Below are positions 160-55,235 of a stretch of DNA of 64,000 nucleotides, in pieces (position 1 is the stretch's first letter; every line of letters begins with the position of its first letter). The stretch lies in NCBI GenBank assembly GCA_041653675.1, contig JBAZEY010000002.1:12315-76314 (forward strand), read 5' to 3'. The notes beneath the pieces are model-generated. The model saw nothing but the letters and a program-made list of their open reading frames with translations, was not told the origin of the DNA and did not search any database. Origin of the DNA: Patescibacteria group bacterium (lineage in GTDB: Bacteria > Patescibacteriota > Patescibacteriia > XYB2-FULL-38-15). A program made the position numbers and the translations under genes.

Positions 160-285
160 CTAAATTTTCTTTTTAGCATAAATTTTATCTCTCTTCGCCC
201 TTTCTGCGGCCATAACTTTAAACGGCGACGGAGTACGATACCGCGTTCTTCCCTTTCCACACCTGGCGCAAGAATATTTTTTCAT
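160..285 (-). CDS. hypothetical small basic CxxC peptide (41 aa)
   Basis: ATG 285..283, TAG 162..160. Translation MKKYSCARCGKGRTRYRTPSPFKVMAAERAKRDKIYAKKKI. Below the ORF-track size cutoff. The start codon directly abuts long-stem element copy 1. Confidence 0.3.
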   Translation of the reverse strand: MKKYSCARCGKGRTRYRTPSPFKVMAAERAKRDKIYAKKKI

Positions 286-286
286 A

Positions 287-416
287 CCCCGTAGTAGAAA
301 TTTGACTTGTATTTTACAATACAAATCTTAATAGTATATTAATTTTTATTATAAATAATACTTATTGCCAAAACATCTAGTCGCCGCTGACGACTTGTCA
401 AATTTTCACTACGGGG
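287..416 (-). repeat. 130-bp long-stem element, copy 1 (20-nt terminal inverted repeats CCCCGTAGT..GAC / GTC..ACTACGGGG)
   Basis: Arms at 287-306 and 397-416 are complementary apart from one conserved A.C mismatch. Same ends and same length as the copies at 12169 and 52870; the interior is unrelated. Confidence 0.8.
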
Positions 417-423
417 CATAAAT

Positions 424-1325: not shown

Positions 1326-3251
1326 TTATCCGGCACTTGATCCGCCTCCGCCTCCACCTCCGCCGGCTCCCCCGCCTCCGCCAAATCCAGACGAACCAGA
1401 CGGACTGCTGTAGCTGACGACGGAATTCATATGTGAAGTCACACCCGCTAAAGAATTTGCAAAAATAACACTATTAAAACTGCTAAACGGCGTGGAACTT
1501 TGATACCAATCCGGCTGTGTTTTATAGATATCAGCAAATCTCTCCGCCCATTTTTGTTCCACCCCTAAAACTATGGCGTAAGATAAATATTTTTCAAATG
1601 TTTCCGGAGTACACGCCCCAAGTCTGAATCTTTCCGCAACTTGCAAATATTCCCTGAAGCCAAGCGCGTGCCATTTTACCTCAACTCCTTTTTCTGTAAG
1701 CGGCGGGGGTTTAATAACTAAATAAATAAACCATAAACCTAGCGAGATTAAAATTGCTGCTAACATTGAAAAAGAAAAATTAGGAAATAACGCTACGACC
1801 ATTGAAATAAAAATACCGGCTGCGAATAATACCAACAAAAAACTCATTTCACGAGCCAGGGGCATAGATCTAAAATATCCTTTTTCTTTGACCAATTTTT
1901 CCAAAACTTCTTTCGGTAACTTGGTAATCATTTTTTGAAAAGAAGTTTTGCTCGCCATATCTCGCAGATCGCTTAACTCAACTGTCTCGCCTGCTCCGAA
2001 AATTGCTTCTAAAAATTCTGCTTCGTAATCGGAGAGACTGGAATCACCCGCAAACTCCTTTCTCTTCGTTAGCGAATATTTTTTACTTTTCACCCATAAA
2101 GTTTTTTCTTCTCGCTCAGAAATTTTTAAATAACCGCGATAGGCCAGATCGATTAGCGTGGCCGTGAAGTCTTTAGAGCGGACGCTATTATAGACAAGTC
2201 CGCCCACTTCAGCCGGAAGCAATTTCGCCGGTGGATCGTATTGGGCAATAATCGTTTTTTTAAGTTTTGGCGCGCTTTGGTATTTCTTAAAAAGAAAAAT
2301 CCCGAGCAGAATCGGAATGAGATAACTCAATTTATCTAAAACATAAAACCACGTTGTTTTTTCCAGTTTAAAATCAGAGGTTATAATTTTTCCTGTTTCA
2401 AGCTTAATAGTTTTTTCTTTTTCTCCCGTAATTTCCCAACCAAATTTTTCTAGAGAAATTTTGTGCTCACCCAAAGAAATTTCATAATTTTCTTCAAGCA
2501 CCGCCGGGGTACGAAGATTGGTTTTTTCTCCGTCCAAAATTACCGCCGCCCCCTCGGGTTCAGAATTAACTTTCAAAACTCCGGCAGAGAAAACGATTCC
2601 TTTGGGCCAACCGGCGACAATCGTAAAATTTTCATAAGCCGGAATATCGCTCCCCCAAAATTTAAGAGTTTTTCCATCAATAATTTCGTAAGTTTCCGAA
2701 GTAGTCTTGGCTCCCGTTGCTCCGACATAAAGCATCTGTTTTAAATCACTAACCTCCGCTGCGCTCGGCAGATGAACTAAAACTTCCACTTCTCCGATTG
2801 GCACATCGCGATTCTCGGAAACCGCGTTCCAATAAAGTTCGTCATAGTCGAGAAAATATCCCAGACCGCCATGCACCTTATACTCAAATGTCCAAGTTTT
2901 TTGTGTGTCAACTAAATCAAAATTAATTTTAATAATAACCTGAGACGTATTTTCCGTTATTTCTATTTCCGGCGGTGCGAGTTCTCGGCCATCTTCATCA
3001 AAAACTTTTATATCACTAACCGCCCGAACTTTATTTTTAGAAATATCCCTGACCGTCCAGTGAAAATTTCCGTGAAAATTAAAAACCTGTGTTTCGCGAA
3101 CGACAAATGTGCTATCCTCATTTATATTTATATCCGCCGACCATTTTTCAAAATCCCACCATTTACTCGGAGTTTCCTCCGCCAAAACCGAACTGCCGGA
3201 AAATAAAAATAATGTTACTACCGCCGCGAGCAAAAATGCTTTTTTAAACAT
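1326..3251 (-). CDS. DUF2207-like membrane protein with Gly-rich C-terminal tail
   Basis: Signal peptide, large extracytoplasmic N-domain, central TM segments and a terminal GSSGFGGGGGAGGGGGGGGSSAG tail, as is typical of DUF2207 proteins. Confidence 0.6.
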   Translation of the reverse strand: MFKKAFLLAAVVTLFLFSGSSVLAEETPSKWWDFEKWSADININEDSTFVVRETQVFNFHGNFHWTVRDISKNKVRAVSDIKVFDEDGRELAPPEIEITENTSQVIIKINFDLVDTQKTWTFEYKVHGGLGYFLDYDELYWNAVSENRDVPIGEVEVLVHLPSAAEVSDLKQMLYVGATGAKTTSETYEIIDGKTLKFWGSDIPAYENFTIVAGWPKGIVFSAGVLKVNSEPEGAAVILDGEKTNLRTPAVLEENYEISLGEHKISLEKFGWEITGEKEKTIKLETGKIITSDFKLEKTTWFYVLDKLSYLIPILLGIFLFKKYQSAPKLKKTIIAQYDPPAKLLPAEVGGLVYNSVRSKDFTATLIDLAYRGYLKISEREEKTLWVKSKKYSLTKRKEFAGDSSLSDYEAEFLEAIFGAGETVELSDLRDMASKTSFQKMITKLPKEVLEKLVKEKGYFRSMPLAREMSFLLVLFAAGIFISMVVALFPNFSFSMLAAILISLGLWFIYLVIKPPPLTEKGVEVKWHALGFREYLQVAERFRLGACTPETFEKYLSYAIVLGVEQKWAERFADIYKTQPDWYQSSTPFSSFNSVIFANSLAGVTSHMNSVVSYSSPSGSSGFGGGGGAGGGGGGGGSSAG

Positions 3252-3878: not shown

Positions 3879-4205
3879 CTATTCTTTTTTTAATTCTTCC
3901 AAAATTTCCGGCGGAATAGGAATTTCTTTCACCGGACTTATTCCCGGATATCGCCAGGCAACAATAATTTTTTTCTGTCCGCTTTTTCCTTTTTGCCACA
4001 TCACCCAAATTTCGGTCTGCCGTTTTCCTTTACCAACTTTTTGCATCATAGCCACTGTTCCGGCCGCGATCCCCTCTTCGGTCCGGTCTGGCGCGCGAAA
4101 AATCTTTTTGACGCGGCTCGGCGCGAGTCCGTAAAAAAACATTTTGGCAATTGCGTGCTTGGTCCAAAAAAATTCCCTGGTTTCCTTAAACTTTGCCAAA
4201 TCCAT
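3879..4205 (-). CDS. hypothetical basic protein (possible toxin-like partner of a two-gene module)
   Basis: 108 aa, Lys-rich. Separated by 3 nt from the upstream acidic 71-aa ORF. Confidence 0.5.
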   Translation of the reverse strand: MDLAKFKETREFFWTKHAIAKMFFYGLAPSRVKKIFRAPDRTEEGIAAGTVAMMQKVGKGKRQTEIWVMWQKGKSGQKKIIVAWRYPGISPVKEIPIPPEILEELKKE

Positions 4206-4208
4206 AAA

Positions 4209-4424
4209 TTAAACTTTCTTTTCTTTCAAATAATCTTCCCACCTTACCTCCAACGCTTCCATAATTGCTTTAATGTCCTCTTCGGGAGAAATTTTACCCA
4301 ACTCTGTTAATTCACCAATCGCGGCCTCGGCCTCTTCAATAAAGGCTTCGTGGCTTTCGGGTACGGCATAATCAAAACGCGCAAGCAGTTCTTCCCAAAT
4401 TGAATCGATGTCTGGCATTGGCAT
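4209..4424 (-). CDS. hypothetical small acidic protein (possible antitoxin-like partner)
   Basis: 71 aa, strongly acidic (many E/D). Immediately upstream of 3879..4205 on the same strand. Confidence 0.5.
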   Translation of the reverse strand: MPMPDIDSIWEELLARFDYAVPESHEAFIEEAEAAIGELTELGKISPEEDIKAIMEALEVRWEDYLKEKKV

Positions 4425-4459
4425 AATTAAATTTTAGATTTAAAATTTTAGATTTAAAA

Positions 4460-4939
4460 TTACGGCGCGGTAAAACGGAAAGTAGAAATTATAAGTTCCC
4501 ATTCCTCAGCTACGGCCGGATCGCTTGGATCAGAATTGTAATCAACCGTCACCCAATTTTTCCCGTTCGGATGTTCTACAATAAAAGCCGGATCGCGGCT
4601 ATAGGTCGCGCGAAATTCACCCTCGCTATCCCAAGTTTCAATTTGTGCCCGATAAGATTGCGTACCCGGAACCGCTTCAATAAAATGTACCAAAGAGTGC
4701 GGCCAGCCGTAAGTATCAAAAATCGTTTTATATTTCGCGGGATATTTCATTTCAATCGCCCACGGAACGCTTTCGTAAACCTCCCAACCAGCGGTCGGAT
4801 CAGACGGCGCATTAACATTTGTCTCGGTCGTCAAAGGCGCATTTGTAGCCTCCTCTTCAGCCGGAAACCACGCGCACCCAGCTCCGGTCAAAATTAATAC
4901 TGCCAAAACCGCCACTGTCGGAAAAATAAATTTTTTCAT
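4460..4939 (-). CDS. hypothetical lipoprotein/secreted protein
   Basis: Signal peptide with lipobox-like LTGAGC. Confidence 0.55.
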   Translation of the reverse strand: MKKFIFPTVAVLAVLILTGAGCAWFPAEEEATNAPLTTETNVNAPSDPTAGWEVYESVPWAIEMKYPAKYKTIFDTYGWPHSLVHFIEAVPGTQSYRAQIETWDSEGEFRATYSRDPAFIVEHPNGKNWVTVDYNSDPSDPAVAEEWELIISTFRFTAP

Positions 4940-11984: not shown

Positions 11985-12167
11985 TTAACTAAGGTTTAAA
12001 TTTTTGCGGATTTTTTCTATCTGCTCTGCTTCTATTTTTTTTATCGCCTTTTCCAAAACTGTCCTCTGGCGAAGCGATAAATCAGCCATAATTTTAGAGA
12101 ACTTTCGATAAGCCCCTTCTGCTTTTAAAATTTTCTCTTTTATAGATAAGTTTTTTTCTTCTGCCAT
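11985..12167 (-). CDS. hypothetical small coiled-coil-like protein
   Basis: 60-aa ORF. The ATG at 12167 directly abuts long-stem element copy 2. Confidence 0.4.
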   Translation of the reverse strand: MAEEKNLSIKEKILKAEGAYRKFSKIMADLSLRQRTVLEKAIKKIEAEQIEKIRKNLNLS

Positions 12168-12168
12168 A

Positions 12169-12299
12169 CCCCGTAGTAGAACTTCTACTTATTTATGAGA
12201 TTAAATTATTTCACTATACACCCGCATTAAAATCTTCGACACCATCATCTGCTCTTCCATTTGTTCGCCGAGGCGAACTGTCGAAGTTTCACTACGGGG
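12169..12299 (-). repeat. 131-bp long-stem element, copy 2
   Basis: Arms at 12169-12188 and 12280-12299. Contains a compensatory U-A to C-G change relative to copies 1 and 3. Confidence 0.8.
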
Positions 12300-12357
12300 C
12301 ATACTTGTGGATAGATATTATATTTATCTATTTTATCATATTTTTGAAAAGATGAGG

Positions 12358-41162: not shown

Positions 41163-41220
41163 AGCCCGTGGATTGTTTTGGAGACCTCCCCTCCTCCGAA
41201 CAATCCACGGGCTCTTTTTT
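41163..41220 (+). terminator. intrinsic terminator closing the GC-rich locus
   Basis: AGCCCGTGGATTGTT...AACAATCCACGGGCT (15-bp stem) followed by CTTTTTT. Confidence 0.7.
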
Positions 41221-41380
41221 ATTATCAAGCGAGTGAGAGAAATGAACTTATTCATTTCCGAGCGAGCGCAGATAACACGGAGTATTATCAAGCGAGTGAG
41301 AGAAATGAACTTATTCATTTCCGAGCGCCCGGCCTCGCCGAAGACGGCAAGTCGAGGCGGGAGCGCAGATAACGCGCAGT
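41221..41380 (+). repeat. 63-bp tandem direct repeat (2 copies; copy 2 carries a 34-bp GC-rich hairpin insertion)
   Basis: 41221-41283 repeats at 41284-41327 plus 41362-41380. Each unit contains the palindrome GAAATGAA-CTTA-TTCATTTC. Confidence 0.85.
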
Positions 41381-52791: not shown

Positions 52792-52869
52792 TTCAAAATC
52801 TATACAGCAAAAACACCCTGGAAAACGGGGTGTTTTTAGTCTGCTTTTTGGCGCTATTTCCCCTCTTGA

Positions 52870-52999
52870 CCCCGTAGTAGAATTTCGACTTTACTATTAT
52901 CTTTTATTGTTTCTAGATTTACGTCGCGCAATAAAGATTTTGTATTTTTCTCGTTTTATTTGGCCCGCAGAGCGGGCTTGTCGAAATTTCACTACGGGG
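52870..52999 (-). repeat. 130-bp long-stem element, copy 3
   Basis: Arms at 52870-52889 and 52980-52999. Same ends and length as copies 1 and 2. Interior hairpin GCCCGC-TCT-GCGGGC. Confidence 0.8.
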
Positions 53000-53143
53000 T
53001 TGATTTTTAATTGCCTATTCTTTTTCGTTTTGCTAAAATATAAGGGCTTAAAAGCCCGTGTTGGCTCCTCGGCTCGGAAATGTGAAACCACATTTCTCTC
53101 GCTCTACGTCGCCAATAGGGACTAACTAACACATAAAATCTAT

Positions 53144-53696: not shown

Positions 53697-54245
53697 ATGA
53701 TTCTCGGAATAAAAAAATTACACGAATTAGTTAAAGAAATTAATTTAGTGGAAAATTTATGCGACCGGGAAATGAATAATCCCGAGGGCGCCGGTTTTGA
53801 TTTGCGGCTCGGAGAAATTTATGAGCTTGAAGGCGACGGATTTTTAGGCGTGGAAGAACGAAACACGCCGGCCATAAAACTTGTGGCAAAAAATGAGGAA
53901 GGAAAATCTGAACAGGAAAACTCTTTTGTTTTTGAACCGGGAAAATATTATTTAGTGAAAACTATGGAAAAAGTAAACTTGCCGGTGACAGTTTCCGGAA
54001 TTATTTTTCCGCGCACCACGCTATTCCGCTCCGGCTTGGGACTTTTTAACGGCATTGTTCAGCCCGGCTACCAAGGCGAACTCACTTTCGGACTTTGCAA
54101 TCTAGGAAAATCAAATATCAAAATTTCTTTCGGCGCGCGAGTCGTGCACATCACTTTTCATGAAGTGCTGGGCGAAGGCAACCAATACCGCGGCCAGTGG
54201 CAAGGCGGCCGAGTCGCGACTGGTGGCAAAGAAGTGCAAGTGTAA
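53697..54245 (+). CDS. dCTP deaminase/dUTPase-fold protein
   Basis: GIVQPGYQGELTFGLCNLG core. C-terminal Y.GQWQGG tail. Confidence 0.65.
   Translation: MILGIKKLHELVKEINLVENLCDREMNNPEGAGFDLRLGEIYELEGDGFLGVEERNTPAIKLVAKNEEGKSEQENSFVFEPGKYYLVKTMEKVNLPVTVSGIIFPRTTLFRSGLGLFNGIVQPGYQGELTFGLCNLGKSNIKISFGARVVHITFHEVLGEGNQYRGQWQGGRVATGGKEVQV
54183..54245 (+). repeat. direct repeat DR1 (authentic 3' end of the dcd-like gene)
   Basis: CAATACCGCGGCCAGTGGCAAGGCGGCC...GGCAAAGAAGTGCAAGTGTAA. Repeated at 55141-55203 and, partly, at 54607-54642. Confidence 0.85.
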
Positions 54246-54606: not shown

Positions 54607-54642
54607 GGCCAATATCGCCGCTGACGGCAAAGAAGTGCAAGT
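54607..54642 (+). repeat. direct repeat DR2 (degenerate, internally deleted copy of the dcd 3' end)
   Basis: GGCCAAT...GACGGCAAAGAAGTGCAAGT. Its relic stop codon overlaps the GNAT start codon (GTATGA). Confidence 0.7.
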
Positions 54643-55143
54643 ATGATAAAAATTAGAAAACATTTACAAAAAGATATTCCCTACCGTGTAAAATGGTTAA
54701 ATAATCCCGAGGTAAACAAATTTATTGGTGACGAGATGGGACAAAAGACAAATCTGAAAAAAGAAAAAGAATGGTTTTCTAATTATCAAAAAGCGAAAAA
54801 CAAAAAATTTTTTACTATCTGTGACGATTCCAAACCAATAGGTTTTATGGGATTATCGCATATTAGCAAGTCCAATAAAAACGCTGATTTATTTATTGTT
54901 ATCGGCGAAGATGATTATCGCGGCAAGGGAATCGGGAAAATTGCCATAAAATGGTTGATTAATTATGGATTTAAAAAATTAAAACTCCACAAAATCAATC
55001 TCGGTGTCGTTAGAGACAACAGCCATGCAATTAAAGTATATCGAGAATTGGGTTTTATTATTGAAGGAAAAATGAAAGACGAAATTTTTTATAAAGGTAA
55101 GTATCACGATTTTTTGTCCATGGCAATTTTTAATAGAAATTAA
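54643..55143 (+). CDS. GNAT-family N-acetyltransferase (cassette between DR2 and DR3)
   Basis: Acetyl-CoA motif YRGKGIGK. RimJ/RimL-like layout. Confidence 0.8.
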   Translation: MIKIRKHLQKDIPYRVKWLNNPEVNKFIGDEMGQKTNLKKEKEWFSNYQKAKNKKFFTICDDSKPIGFMGLSHISKSNKNADLFIVIGEDDYRGKGIGKIAIKWLINYGFKKLKLHKINLGVVRDNSHAIKVYRELGFIIEGKMKDEIFYKGKYHDFLSMAIFNRN

Positions 55144-55203
55144 TACCGCGGCCAATGGCAAGGCGGCCACGTCGCAACCGGCGGCAAGGAAATACAAGTT
55201 TAA
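55141..55203 (+). repeat. direct repeat DR3 (about 80-85% identical copy of the dcd 3' end, relic reading frame preserved)
   Basis: TAATACCGCGGCCAATGGCAAGGCGGCCAC...GGCAAGGAAATACAAGTTTAA encodes YRGQWQGGHVATGGKEIQV* after the GNAT stop codon. Confidence 0.85.
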
Positions 55204-55235
55204 AATTAAAAAAATAATTATTAACTTACAAACCT

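Follow-up and report, generated by a model that had tools for sequence, protein, structure and literature searches.

The DNA analyzed here is a window of 64,000 nucleotides from a Patescibacteria group bacterium (GTDB lineage Bacteria; Patescibacteriota; Patescibacteriia; XYB2-FULL-38-15; NCBI GenBank assembly GCA_041653675.1, contig JBAZEY010000002.1, positions 12,315 to 76,314 of the forward strand), which contains three copies of a hairpin-forming element. Copy 2, a non-coding segment of 131 bp on the minus strand (12299..12169), is the scar left by a mobile element (transposon) that inserted at the start codon of a small gene, and not a leader dedicated to that gene. Judging from comparative sequence analysis, it is probably a non-autonomous miniature inverted-repeat transposable element (MITE) belonging to a family of very small transposable elements of the Candidate Phyla Radiation (CPR) whose full-length members carry a GIY-YIG nuclease as the mobilizing enzyme. 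The insertion with its duplication and empty site, the membership in a family, the covariation of the two ends, their physical association with a GIY-YIG gene and the bias toward start codons are all observed directly. The parts of copy 2 and its immediate surroundings are the following, with the basis of each assignment in parentheses.

12330..12340, minus strand: extended -10-like promoter element TATGATAAAAT (sequence; conserved upstream of the 60-aa open reading frame on loci L121-L124).
12300..12303, minus strand: upstream copy of the target-site duplication, TATG on the minus strand (the empty site has a single TATG).
12280..12299, minus strand: 5' arm, the 'GTGAAA' terminal inverted repeat CCCCGTAGTGAAACTTCGAC (sequence, arm matches, family alignment A3).
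12263..12278, minus strand: inner G+C-rich hairpin GTTCGCC-UC-GGCGAAC beside the 5' arm (alignment of the copies, fold).
12229..12243, minus strand: arm-like motif GGUGUCGAAGAUUUU / GGTGTCGAAGATTTT (read in the sequence).
12169..12188, minus strand: 3' arm, the 'GTAGAA' terminal inverted repeat GTAGAAGTTCTACTACGGGG (sequence, fold, family comparison).
12165..12168, minus strand: downstream copy of the duplication, TATG, with the ATG at 12167..12165 starting the 60-aa open reading frame (sequence, empty site).
11985..12167, minus strand: host open reading frame (ORF) of 60 aa, whose start codon is the insertion target; no Pfam match (comparison of relatives).

Read on the minus strand, the region runs TATG-CCCCGTAGTGAAACTTCGAC-...-GTAGAAGTTCTACTACGGGG-TATG-GCAGAA, and direct repeats of 4 bp flank copies 1, 2 and 3 (TATG, TATG and, on the minus strand, TCAA, respectively). 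Relatives were fetched with the MltG gene just upstream of the copy 2 locus as an anchor, and several of them lack the element: at locus L121, with an MltG of 98% identity, the site is empty, contains TATG only once (CACAAGTATGGCAGAAG) and reads ...ATCTATCCACAAGTATGGCAGAAG / ...ATATCTATCCACAAGTATGGCAGAAG..., and the sites at loci L123 (from a Falkowbacteria genome) and L124 are empty as well, reading CACAATTATGGCAGAAG, all three having a single (T/A)TATG at the same gene, which is kept as a 60-aa gene in the relatives without the element. Therefore, the window differs at this site from the empty allele by the element and one additional TATG, and the GGGGU-AUG junction exists because the 4-bp target-site duplication regenerates the start codon. 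Contigs assembled from short reads of the same strain (Logan) end inside the element, as repeats would cause. At the level of sequence, copy 2 has every property by which a MITE is recognized, namely terminal inverted repeats, a duplication of fixed length, a precise empty site, a small body without a gene, and ends in common with a gene-bearing element. In relatives (L121 3361..3890; L122-L124 about 4030..4530), a gene of ~90-127 aa with a strong GGAGG ribosome-binding site separates mltG from the promoter of the 60-aa ORF; this segment of ~450 bp is missing from the window (compare 12304..12357).

The arms of copy 2 form the closing stem of 20 bp, in which three positions deviate from standard pairing: 10 (G·U), 11 (A·C) and 18 (G·A). 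The original prediction, which was drawn from the letters of the window alone, had described an element at 12169..12299 closed by a long stem and ending 1 nt before the ATG of the 60-aa ORF 11985..12167; the coordinates proved exact, with arms of 20 bp, and the GGGG-U-AUG junction is indeed present in copies 1 and 2. It had also set position 14 of copy 2 (C-G) apart from a U-A pair in copies 1 and 3, which is correct for copy 3, whereas copy 1 has A-U; the position is paired in all three copies. The additional inner mismatch that it reported is real (G18 opposite A) and its partial arm-like motif of the interior could be located at 12229..12243; what it overlooked is the G·U/A·C tandem at positions 10-11, which all copies share. 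Across the window, six arm matches have 0 mismatches and every other match needs 3. The place of the inner hairpin of copy 2 is taken in copies 1 and 3 by hairpins with other sequences, and an inner G+C hairpin is found in many long-form members of the family. No Pfam or other HMM signal was detected in the interior of copy 2, the only reading frame of which is a 33-codon run-through from the duplicated ATG. The motif at 12229..12243 resembles, by eye and with no statistical support, the subterminal GTCGAA(A/G)(A/G)ATTTAA that full-length elements have at the 3' end of their nuclease gene. A further internal motif, similar to (A)CGGGG(T/C)AT, is present ~40-50 nt before the 3' arm in many long-form MITEs (L016, L018, L021, L062, L089 and L102) and at 12205..12225 in the window; its resemblance to a degenerate second 3' terminus plus duplication suggests that long forms are composites.

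Copy 2 belongs to a family that, as far as can be told from sequence matches, is found widely across CPR/Patescibacteria. An exact-pattern search over one genome per species yielded at least 117 loci, mostly in Nealsonbacteria, Saccharibacteria, Parcubacteria, Uhrbacteria and other Patescibacteria, and the copy counts given next are drawn from the matches listed in that search. Perfect 4-bp flanking repeats are present in 34 of the 48 exact-ended copies, the chance expectation in AT-rich flanks being estimated at about 1%. With looser matching, there are 88 copies that can be oriented (61-317 bp, nested copies included), and 64 of these have a perfect 4-bp duplication. The copies fall into two size classes, of about 61-83 bp and about 117-150 bp. 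Members of the family sit at hundreds of unrelated genes; moreover, near-identical copies of the same subfamily bear different 4-bp duplications. Some copies are nested within others and some abut one another, and several nested composites have evidently moved as units, to judge from their sequences. In L065, L107, L113, L114, L054 and L041, a short copy is nested in the loop of another copy's GCTGC-NNNN-GCAGC hairpin; nested short copies have the same CTGG or CGGG duplication in several genomes, and composites of 141-149 bp are themselves located at TATG start codons and seem to have been transposed as units. Among viral sequences in IMG/VR there are eight arm matches, one of which is a complete 134-bp long-form copy (L228 410..543, IMGVR_UViG_3300009285_005821) on a contig classed as viral; the other seven are single arms that may be due to chance and are uninformative as to spread on viruses.

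The 20-bp ends of these elements are, by comparison of their sequences, kept complementary to each other rather than constant. Among 96 distinct arm pairs from MITEs and full-length elements, 92.3% of the cells form a standard pair, both sides have changed in 15 of the 20 stem pairs, and 236 cells are changed on both sides. The covariation score is 0.357, compared with 0.108 for shuffled pairs (none of 500 shuffles reaches the observed value) and at most 0.069 when the partners are slid. Even the outer, 'conserved' part of the arm changes in a compensatory manner, e.g., CCAGGAAGTG...CTTCCTGG. The exception is position 10, which is G·T (G·U in RNA), and position 11, which is A·C, in all three window copies and every orientable family member; the orientation of the copies was assigned from these two positions, and 6 copies incompatible with them were left out. 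Given this family-wide covariation, the C14-G pair of copy 2 is one instance of a rule that the two ends must pair; the earlier proposal that the stem is constrained to pair and that the double change in copy 2 is compensatory is thus borne out.

A stem that covaries might also be taken as the signature of a cis-acting RNA element, i.e., a long stem in the 5' untranslated region (UTR) that controls the translation or stability of the small ORF, and this is how the original prediction read copy 2. Since the -10-like element TATGATAAAAT is conserved in relatives, copy 2 probably does sit in the 5' UTR of the 60-aa gene, between that promoter-like element and the ATG, although a consensus promoter scan near 12330..12340 listed only a weaker neighboring match. 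Moreover, the minus strand of copy 2 has a predicted fold of -45.1 kcal/mol (z = -4.96, 200 shuffles) that engages the A and U of the AUG in pairing with the duplication copy upstream of the element, and 26 of the 88 MITE copies abut a start codon. However, the plus strand folds almost equally well, the duplication already explains the start-codon junction, and relatives have the same gene without the element, the site being empty on L121, L123 and L124. Copy 3 is antisense to its neighbors and not beside an ORF start, and other members lie beside unrelated genes, within other copies or upstream of -35-like hexamers. Furthermore, when elements are oriented by transcript (the nuclease ORF or the host gene), the stem mismatches outside positions 10-11 comprise 22 A·C and 8 G·U, and this excess of A·C over G·U on the transcript strand, the reverse of what selection on the sense RNA would produce, speaks against such selection and hints weakly that folding takes place in the complementary DNA strand. 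No match to Rfam 15 in the window reaches the gathering score, the best one near copy 2 (at E up to 10) having 16 bits against a gathering score of 55.6, and no curated RNA family is a credible candidate. Because of the mismatch count, the duplication, the empty sites and the variable orientation shown by copy 3, a role at the DNA level appears to be the better explanation of the covariation than a role in RNA. A dedicated RNA element is accordingly very unlikely, and a regulatory reading is secondary at best: as a by-product of the insertion, the hairpin in front of the AUG may reduce translation of the 60-aa ORF.

With respect to the enzyme that moves these elements, the decisive family members are those that enclose a gene. 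Locus L097 is a 317-bp family member that encloses the ORF of a GIY-YIG protein with >430 homologs in CPR. A metagenome scan made with an alignment of the nuclease proteins yielded 80 loci with 83 nuclease genes, and in 68 of the 83 both family ends are present at fixed offsets, the left end beginning 25-27 nt before the ATG of the nuclease and the right end finishing 15-20 nt after its stop codon. Full-length elements measure 300-331 bp and contain one GIY-YIG gene of ~90 aa (84-101 aa), with the same ends and 4-bp duplications as the MITEs. The element at L125 illustrates this organization: aacATGA[CCCTGTAGTGAAATTTTAGCTCGATT-ATG...91 codons...AGCTAA-AATTCTACTACCGGG]ATGAtaatc or, with its ends in short form, ATGA[CCCTGTAGTGAAA...nuclease...TTCTACTACCGGG]ATGA. 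The second ATGA starts a GT11 fucosyltransferase (MIIIKLMGGLGNQMFQ) of 283 aa, the same length as its homologs, and the syntenic ortholog at L220 (DUF268-GT11-GT2) has the arrangement DUF268-ATGA-GT11, ...AAAAAGGGATGATTATAATT, without an element. Some nuclease homologs that lack a stop codon read through the arm and have the C-terminus ...NSTTG (AAT TCT ACT ACG GGG). The nuclease matches the Pfam family GIY-YIG (PF01541) over residues 1-68 with E of about 1e-16; the nearest solved structures are UPF0213 proteins (1zg2, E = 1e-6; 1ywl, 2e-6) and SLX1 (7wme, 3e-4), the matches on plasmids are YazA-like, and there is a weak match, below the family cut-off, to the group I intron endonucleases of NCBIfam. 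Other GIY-YIG matches in MITE-bearing loci (L024, L114, L021 and L037) are distant paralogs without these ends. Two of these paralogs, L114 2358..2618 and L021 6134..6493, lie directly upstream of tRNA genes, with the tRNA starting a few bases after the stop codon.

We infer from this association that the GIY-YIG protein is the mobilizing enzyme and that its substrate is a single-stranded hairpin. Under the proposed mechanism, the nuclease would recognize the element in a self-folded state, either a single-stranded hairpin or a cruciform, the base of which juxtaposes both ends, and would cut at the base of the hairpin. A staggered target break of 4 nt, filled in by host repair, would then give rise to the duplication, and copies without a gene, such as copy 2, would be moved in trans. 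In the case of copy 2, the element would have been inserted at the TATG that overlaps the start codon of the 60-aa gene, with 4 bp duplicated so that an intact ATG follows. Recognition of the folded form is suggested because the fixed G·T/A·C tandem exists only when the element is folded; folding would also join the two ends, which is hardly possible for duplex DNA of 61-83 bp. A precedent for such an enzyme is provided by the Ssn nucleases, described below (PMC11893778).

Several observations weigh against this interpretation. We know of no GIY-YIG enzyme that carries out integration, and terminal inverted repeats combined with a fixed 4-bp duplication are the classical signature of a DDE transposase. 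There is no GIY-YIG gene within the window, and comparisons of the interiors of the window copies with the nuclease gene (blastn-short and a six-frame HMM search) gave nothing significant; the window MITEs have only their ends in common with the nuclease-bearing elements, and the link between the two rests on these shared ends and on the length of the duplication. One or both detectable ends are absent in 15 of the 83 nuclease genes. The sole empty site for a full-length copy, that of L220, comes from an ortholog at 74% protein identity and not from a sister strain. Finally, with the nuclease gene as reference, the GA/AG arm mismatch is found in either configuration (33 vs. 23, clustered by subfamily), which is unexplained; apparently, the interior has been inverted with respect to the ends on more than one occasion.

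Some of these points also favor the main rival explanation, according to which the MITEs are moved by an ordinary DDE transposase, e.g., one similar to the IS1380/piggyBac-like enzymes, which generate a 4-bp duplication and act on ends starting with CC, and the GIY-YIG gene is a passenger or a homing-type selfish gene that has colonized the hairpin loop. However, a transposase gene is present in none of the ~150 inspected family members, and a search for a partner arm 0.45-4 kb away in the 117 listed loci found only coincidental or composite pairs. Nor does any protein family recur beside the elements: all-against-all clustering of 744 neighboring ORFs returned housekeeping clusters only, with no transposase or RAYT. 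The nuclease gene, in turn, keeps a fixed spacing to either end even between divergent subfamilies whose ends covary. Furthermore, the ends conserve pairing and not sequence, which a protein that reads double-stranded ends would not need, and duplex DNA as short as the copies of 61-83 bp could hardly be bent to form a synaptic complex. On balance, a DDE transposase with the nuclease as a passenger is unlikely, and mobilization by the GIY-YIG nuclease appears to be the preferable interpretation.

The target sites of the family show a pronounced bias. Among 63 unique contexts of full-length elements, a host start codon is found at the 3' junction in 45 and at the 5' junction in 1 (a start-codon context being an ORF of at least 50 codons that starts in or at the duplication), and in the 3' cases the host gene is co-directional with the nuclease gene. 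The duplications of full-length elements are mostly TATG (17), TGGA (6) and ATGA (4). In a subfamily with TCCC...GGGA ends, the duplication starts with TG and the last A of the element rebuilds the ATG. Such ends, which represent a compensatory change of the terminal pair, were seen at L132, L134, L135, L138, L152 and L157 and in L017 (1571..1702 and 2663..2795), with the duplications TGGA, TGAA and TGTA; CCCC...GGGG ends combined with a TGAA duplication create a GTG start. Among the MITEs, those that abut the start of an ORF of at least 50 codons (27 if the 41-aa ORF at window copy 1 is counted) include roughly two of every three long forms; when start-like sites are defined in the same crude way within the same loci, they make up only ~11% of all [TA]ATG sites, or ~35% of the intergenic ones. 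Short MITEs favor TTGAC, which overlaps 13 of 37 reconstructed empty sites compared with 1.6% of random positions, and as a result many of them lie just upstream of -35-like hexamers. In the forms located at start codons, the G+C hairpin is always on the side away from the host gene, regardless of the GA/AG asymmetry of the arms. This pattern of target sites could reflect target choice, survival of tolerated insertions or a need for host expression signals.

The two other copies in the window, which are spaced 12 and 41 kb apart along it with copy 2 in between, have the following coordinates.

283..420, minus strand: copy 1, with the element at 287..416 (130 bp) between the two TATG copies of its duplication (283..286 and 417..420); the ATG of a 41-aa ORF adjoins it.
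52866..53003, minus strand: copy 3, with the element at 52870..52999 (130 bp) and TCAA duplications, TTGA on the plus strand (sequence).

The 41-aa ORF after copy 1 (160..285, minus strand) encodes a basic peptide with a CxxC motif, MKKYSCARCGKGRTRYRTPSPFKV..., and has no Pfam match. Copy 3 lies between the rplA terminator and the promoter of a dCMP-deaminase gene, in the orientation opposite to both genes. No empty sites were found for copies 1 and 3, the elements being present in all retrieved strains with identical flanking proteins. The identity of these elements as integron attC sites was considered and rejected: the arms have no R''/R' cores (RYYYAAC / GTTRRRY), and the copies, at their distances of 12 and 41 kb, have 4-bp duplications. 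Elsewhere in the window, there are no tRNA or tmRNA genes; identical direct repeats of 45 nt occur at 41220..41264 and 41283..41327 (63 nt from start to start), and a segment of 36-62 nt (…GGCAAAGAAGTGCAAGT…) is present three times, at 54184..54245, 54615..54650 and 55142..55207, with 72-84% identity, placed at or after the 3' ends of neighboring ORFs, one of which ends in ...ATGGKEVQV.

The family, rather than copy 2 itself, is the interesting part of these findings. Tentatively, and with appreciably less confidence than we have in the assignment of copy 2, we suggest that the full-length members could constitute a new class of autonomous prokaryotic transposons of ~310 bp, the smallest known, with a sole gene for a GIY-YIG nuclease of ~90 aa that would act on its own folded, single-stranded ends; such elements would insert co-directionally at start codons, which are rebuilt by the 4-bp duplication (or by a terminal A/G plus TG), and would yield MITEs of 61-220 bp across the CPR. 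If autonomous, an element of 300-330 bp would be smaller than any known insertion sequence, and to our knowledge no insertion-sequence family relies on a GIY-YIG nuclease. Insertion at a start codon that rebuilds the ATG would let the parasite borrow the expression signals of the host while leaving the host gene undestroyed. On the practical side, the repeats break CPR assemblies and can mislead the calling of gene starts and the discovery of non-coding RNAs, and the nuclease/hairpin pairs may add specificities to the tools that cut single-stranded DNA. The full-text literature, coverage of which is incomplete, yielded no account of GIY-YIG elements that have inverted-repeat ends, duplicate their target or insert at start codons, nor of any in CPR. 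Only one relevant paper, that on the Ssn nucleases (PMC11893778), emerged when the literature was searched for the arm sequence, for patescibacterial MITEs and for GIY-YIG proteins in connection with repeats, duplications, start codons or insertion sequences.

Among the known mobile or repetitive elements, the window copies most obviously recall the bacterial MITEs, such as Correia/CREE of Neisseria, ERIC and RUP, in being short (61-220 bp) and devoid of coding capacity, in having terminal inverted repeats and a duplication of fixed length, and in occurring in many copies in intergenic regions near promoters, where they are transcribed into stable hairpins. They differ in that the presumed autonomous partner is a GIY-YIG-only unit of ~310 bp and not a DDE insertion sequence, in that the ends conserve complementarity and a fixed tandem mismatch instead of sequence, and in the strong preference for start codons and TTGAC sites. 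A conserved GTAG and an organization as hairpin doublets are typical of REP elements, and given the CCCC-GTAG in the arms, one could envisage a REPIN/REP-like element moved by RAYT, an IS200/IS605-type Y1 HUH transposase. The REPIN-RAYT and IS200/IS605 systems are also comparable in that they are very small, apparently involve recognition of folded DNA and include gene-less hairpin derivatives that spread in the genome. However, HUH elements have neither a target duplication nor terminal inverted repeats, and transposition of single strands by HUH enzymes does not produce a fixed 4-bp duplication whose sequence varies among near-identical copies; there is no recurrent neighboring gene, and the gene enclosed by the ends is that of a GIY-YIG nuclease and not of a Y1 HUH transposase, so this origin is hardly credible. 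An IS200/IS605 identity as such was likewise rejected, as the ends pair with each other and the duplication varies among near-identical copies, and so was target recognition of the guide type, as no internal 4-mer was seen by inspection to track the differing duplications of such copies.

As for the protein, its nearest relatives by sequence are the structure-specific GIY-YIG nucleases of the UPF0213/YazA/YhbQ and SLX1 groups. SLX1 cuts branched and stem-loop DNA. The members of these groups are single-copy housekeeping or repair genes for which, without inspection of their flanks, we know of no terminal repeats or mobility. Free-standing GIY-YIG homing genes, such as seg of phage T4 and I-TevI, resemble the CPR gene in being selfish nuclease genes inserted between host genes or at their edges, but homing copies the gene into a homologous allele, without terminal repeats or a duplication, and the extra DNA-binding domains of the homing enzymes are absent from the CPR nuclease.

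The closest known system is that of the Ssn nucleases, GIY-YIG proteins of ~94 aa (CDD cd10448) that bind and cut only single-stranded DNA beside the SRM/NTS hairpin repeats that flank their own genes, an architecture whose likeness to insertion sequences was noted by the authors as a hypothesis (Chenal et al., 2025; PMC11893778). That paper reports neither a duplication nor mobility nor CPR members for the system, and does not contain the words 'target site', 'duplication', 'start codon' or 'Patescibacteria'. By sequence, the CPR nuclease is UPF0213/SLX1-like, and it appears to be closest to Ssn in function: in both cases, a single-domain GIY-YIG protein of ~90 aa (in the full-length CPR members, not in the window) has a gene bracketed by inverted-repeat DNA that is also present in many gene-less genomic copies, and repeat and protein appear to co-evolve. 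In the CPR elements, however, the flanking repeats pair together and place the gene in the loop of one long hairpin, whereas each Ssn repeat forms a small hairpin of its own, and the nearest named relatives of the CPR protein by sequence are UPF0213 (1zg2, 1ywl), YazA and SLX1, not the Ssn proteins of Proteobacteria.

Given these similarities, the CPR repeats could also represent a domesticated system of the Ssn/SRM type, in which hairpin repeats that no longer transpose serve as chromosomal sites for a host nuclease specific for single-stranded DNA that modulates recombination or DNA uptake. In Neisseria, the NTS repeats together with SsnA modulate transformation, and a domesticated IS-like unit has been suggested by the authors (PMC11893778); furthermore, copies 1 and 3 are common to all near-identical strains retrieved. 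On the other hand, close strains differ in the presence or absence of copy 2, nested insertions are observed and composites have been moved as units, and the published SRM consensus, HGTCWYN(0-2)YYVSBRHN(0-5)WNVSBRGN(0-2)RNCYNB, has 0 matches in the window, among 94 MITEs and among 56 full-length elements. Domestication is therefore improbable, if somewhat less so than a dedicated RNA element. The 4-bp duplications, empty sites, nested copies and start-codon insertions, which are seen in the CPR elements and set them apart from Ssn, together with the MITE derivatives, make the IS-like hypothesis for nuclease-plus-hairpin units (PMC11893778) directly testable and, if the proposed role of the GIY-YIG protein is correct, would provide the first evidence of mobility for an Ssn-like architecture that combines a GIY-YIG gene with hairpin repeats.

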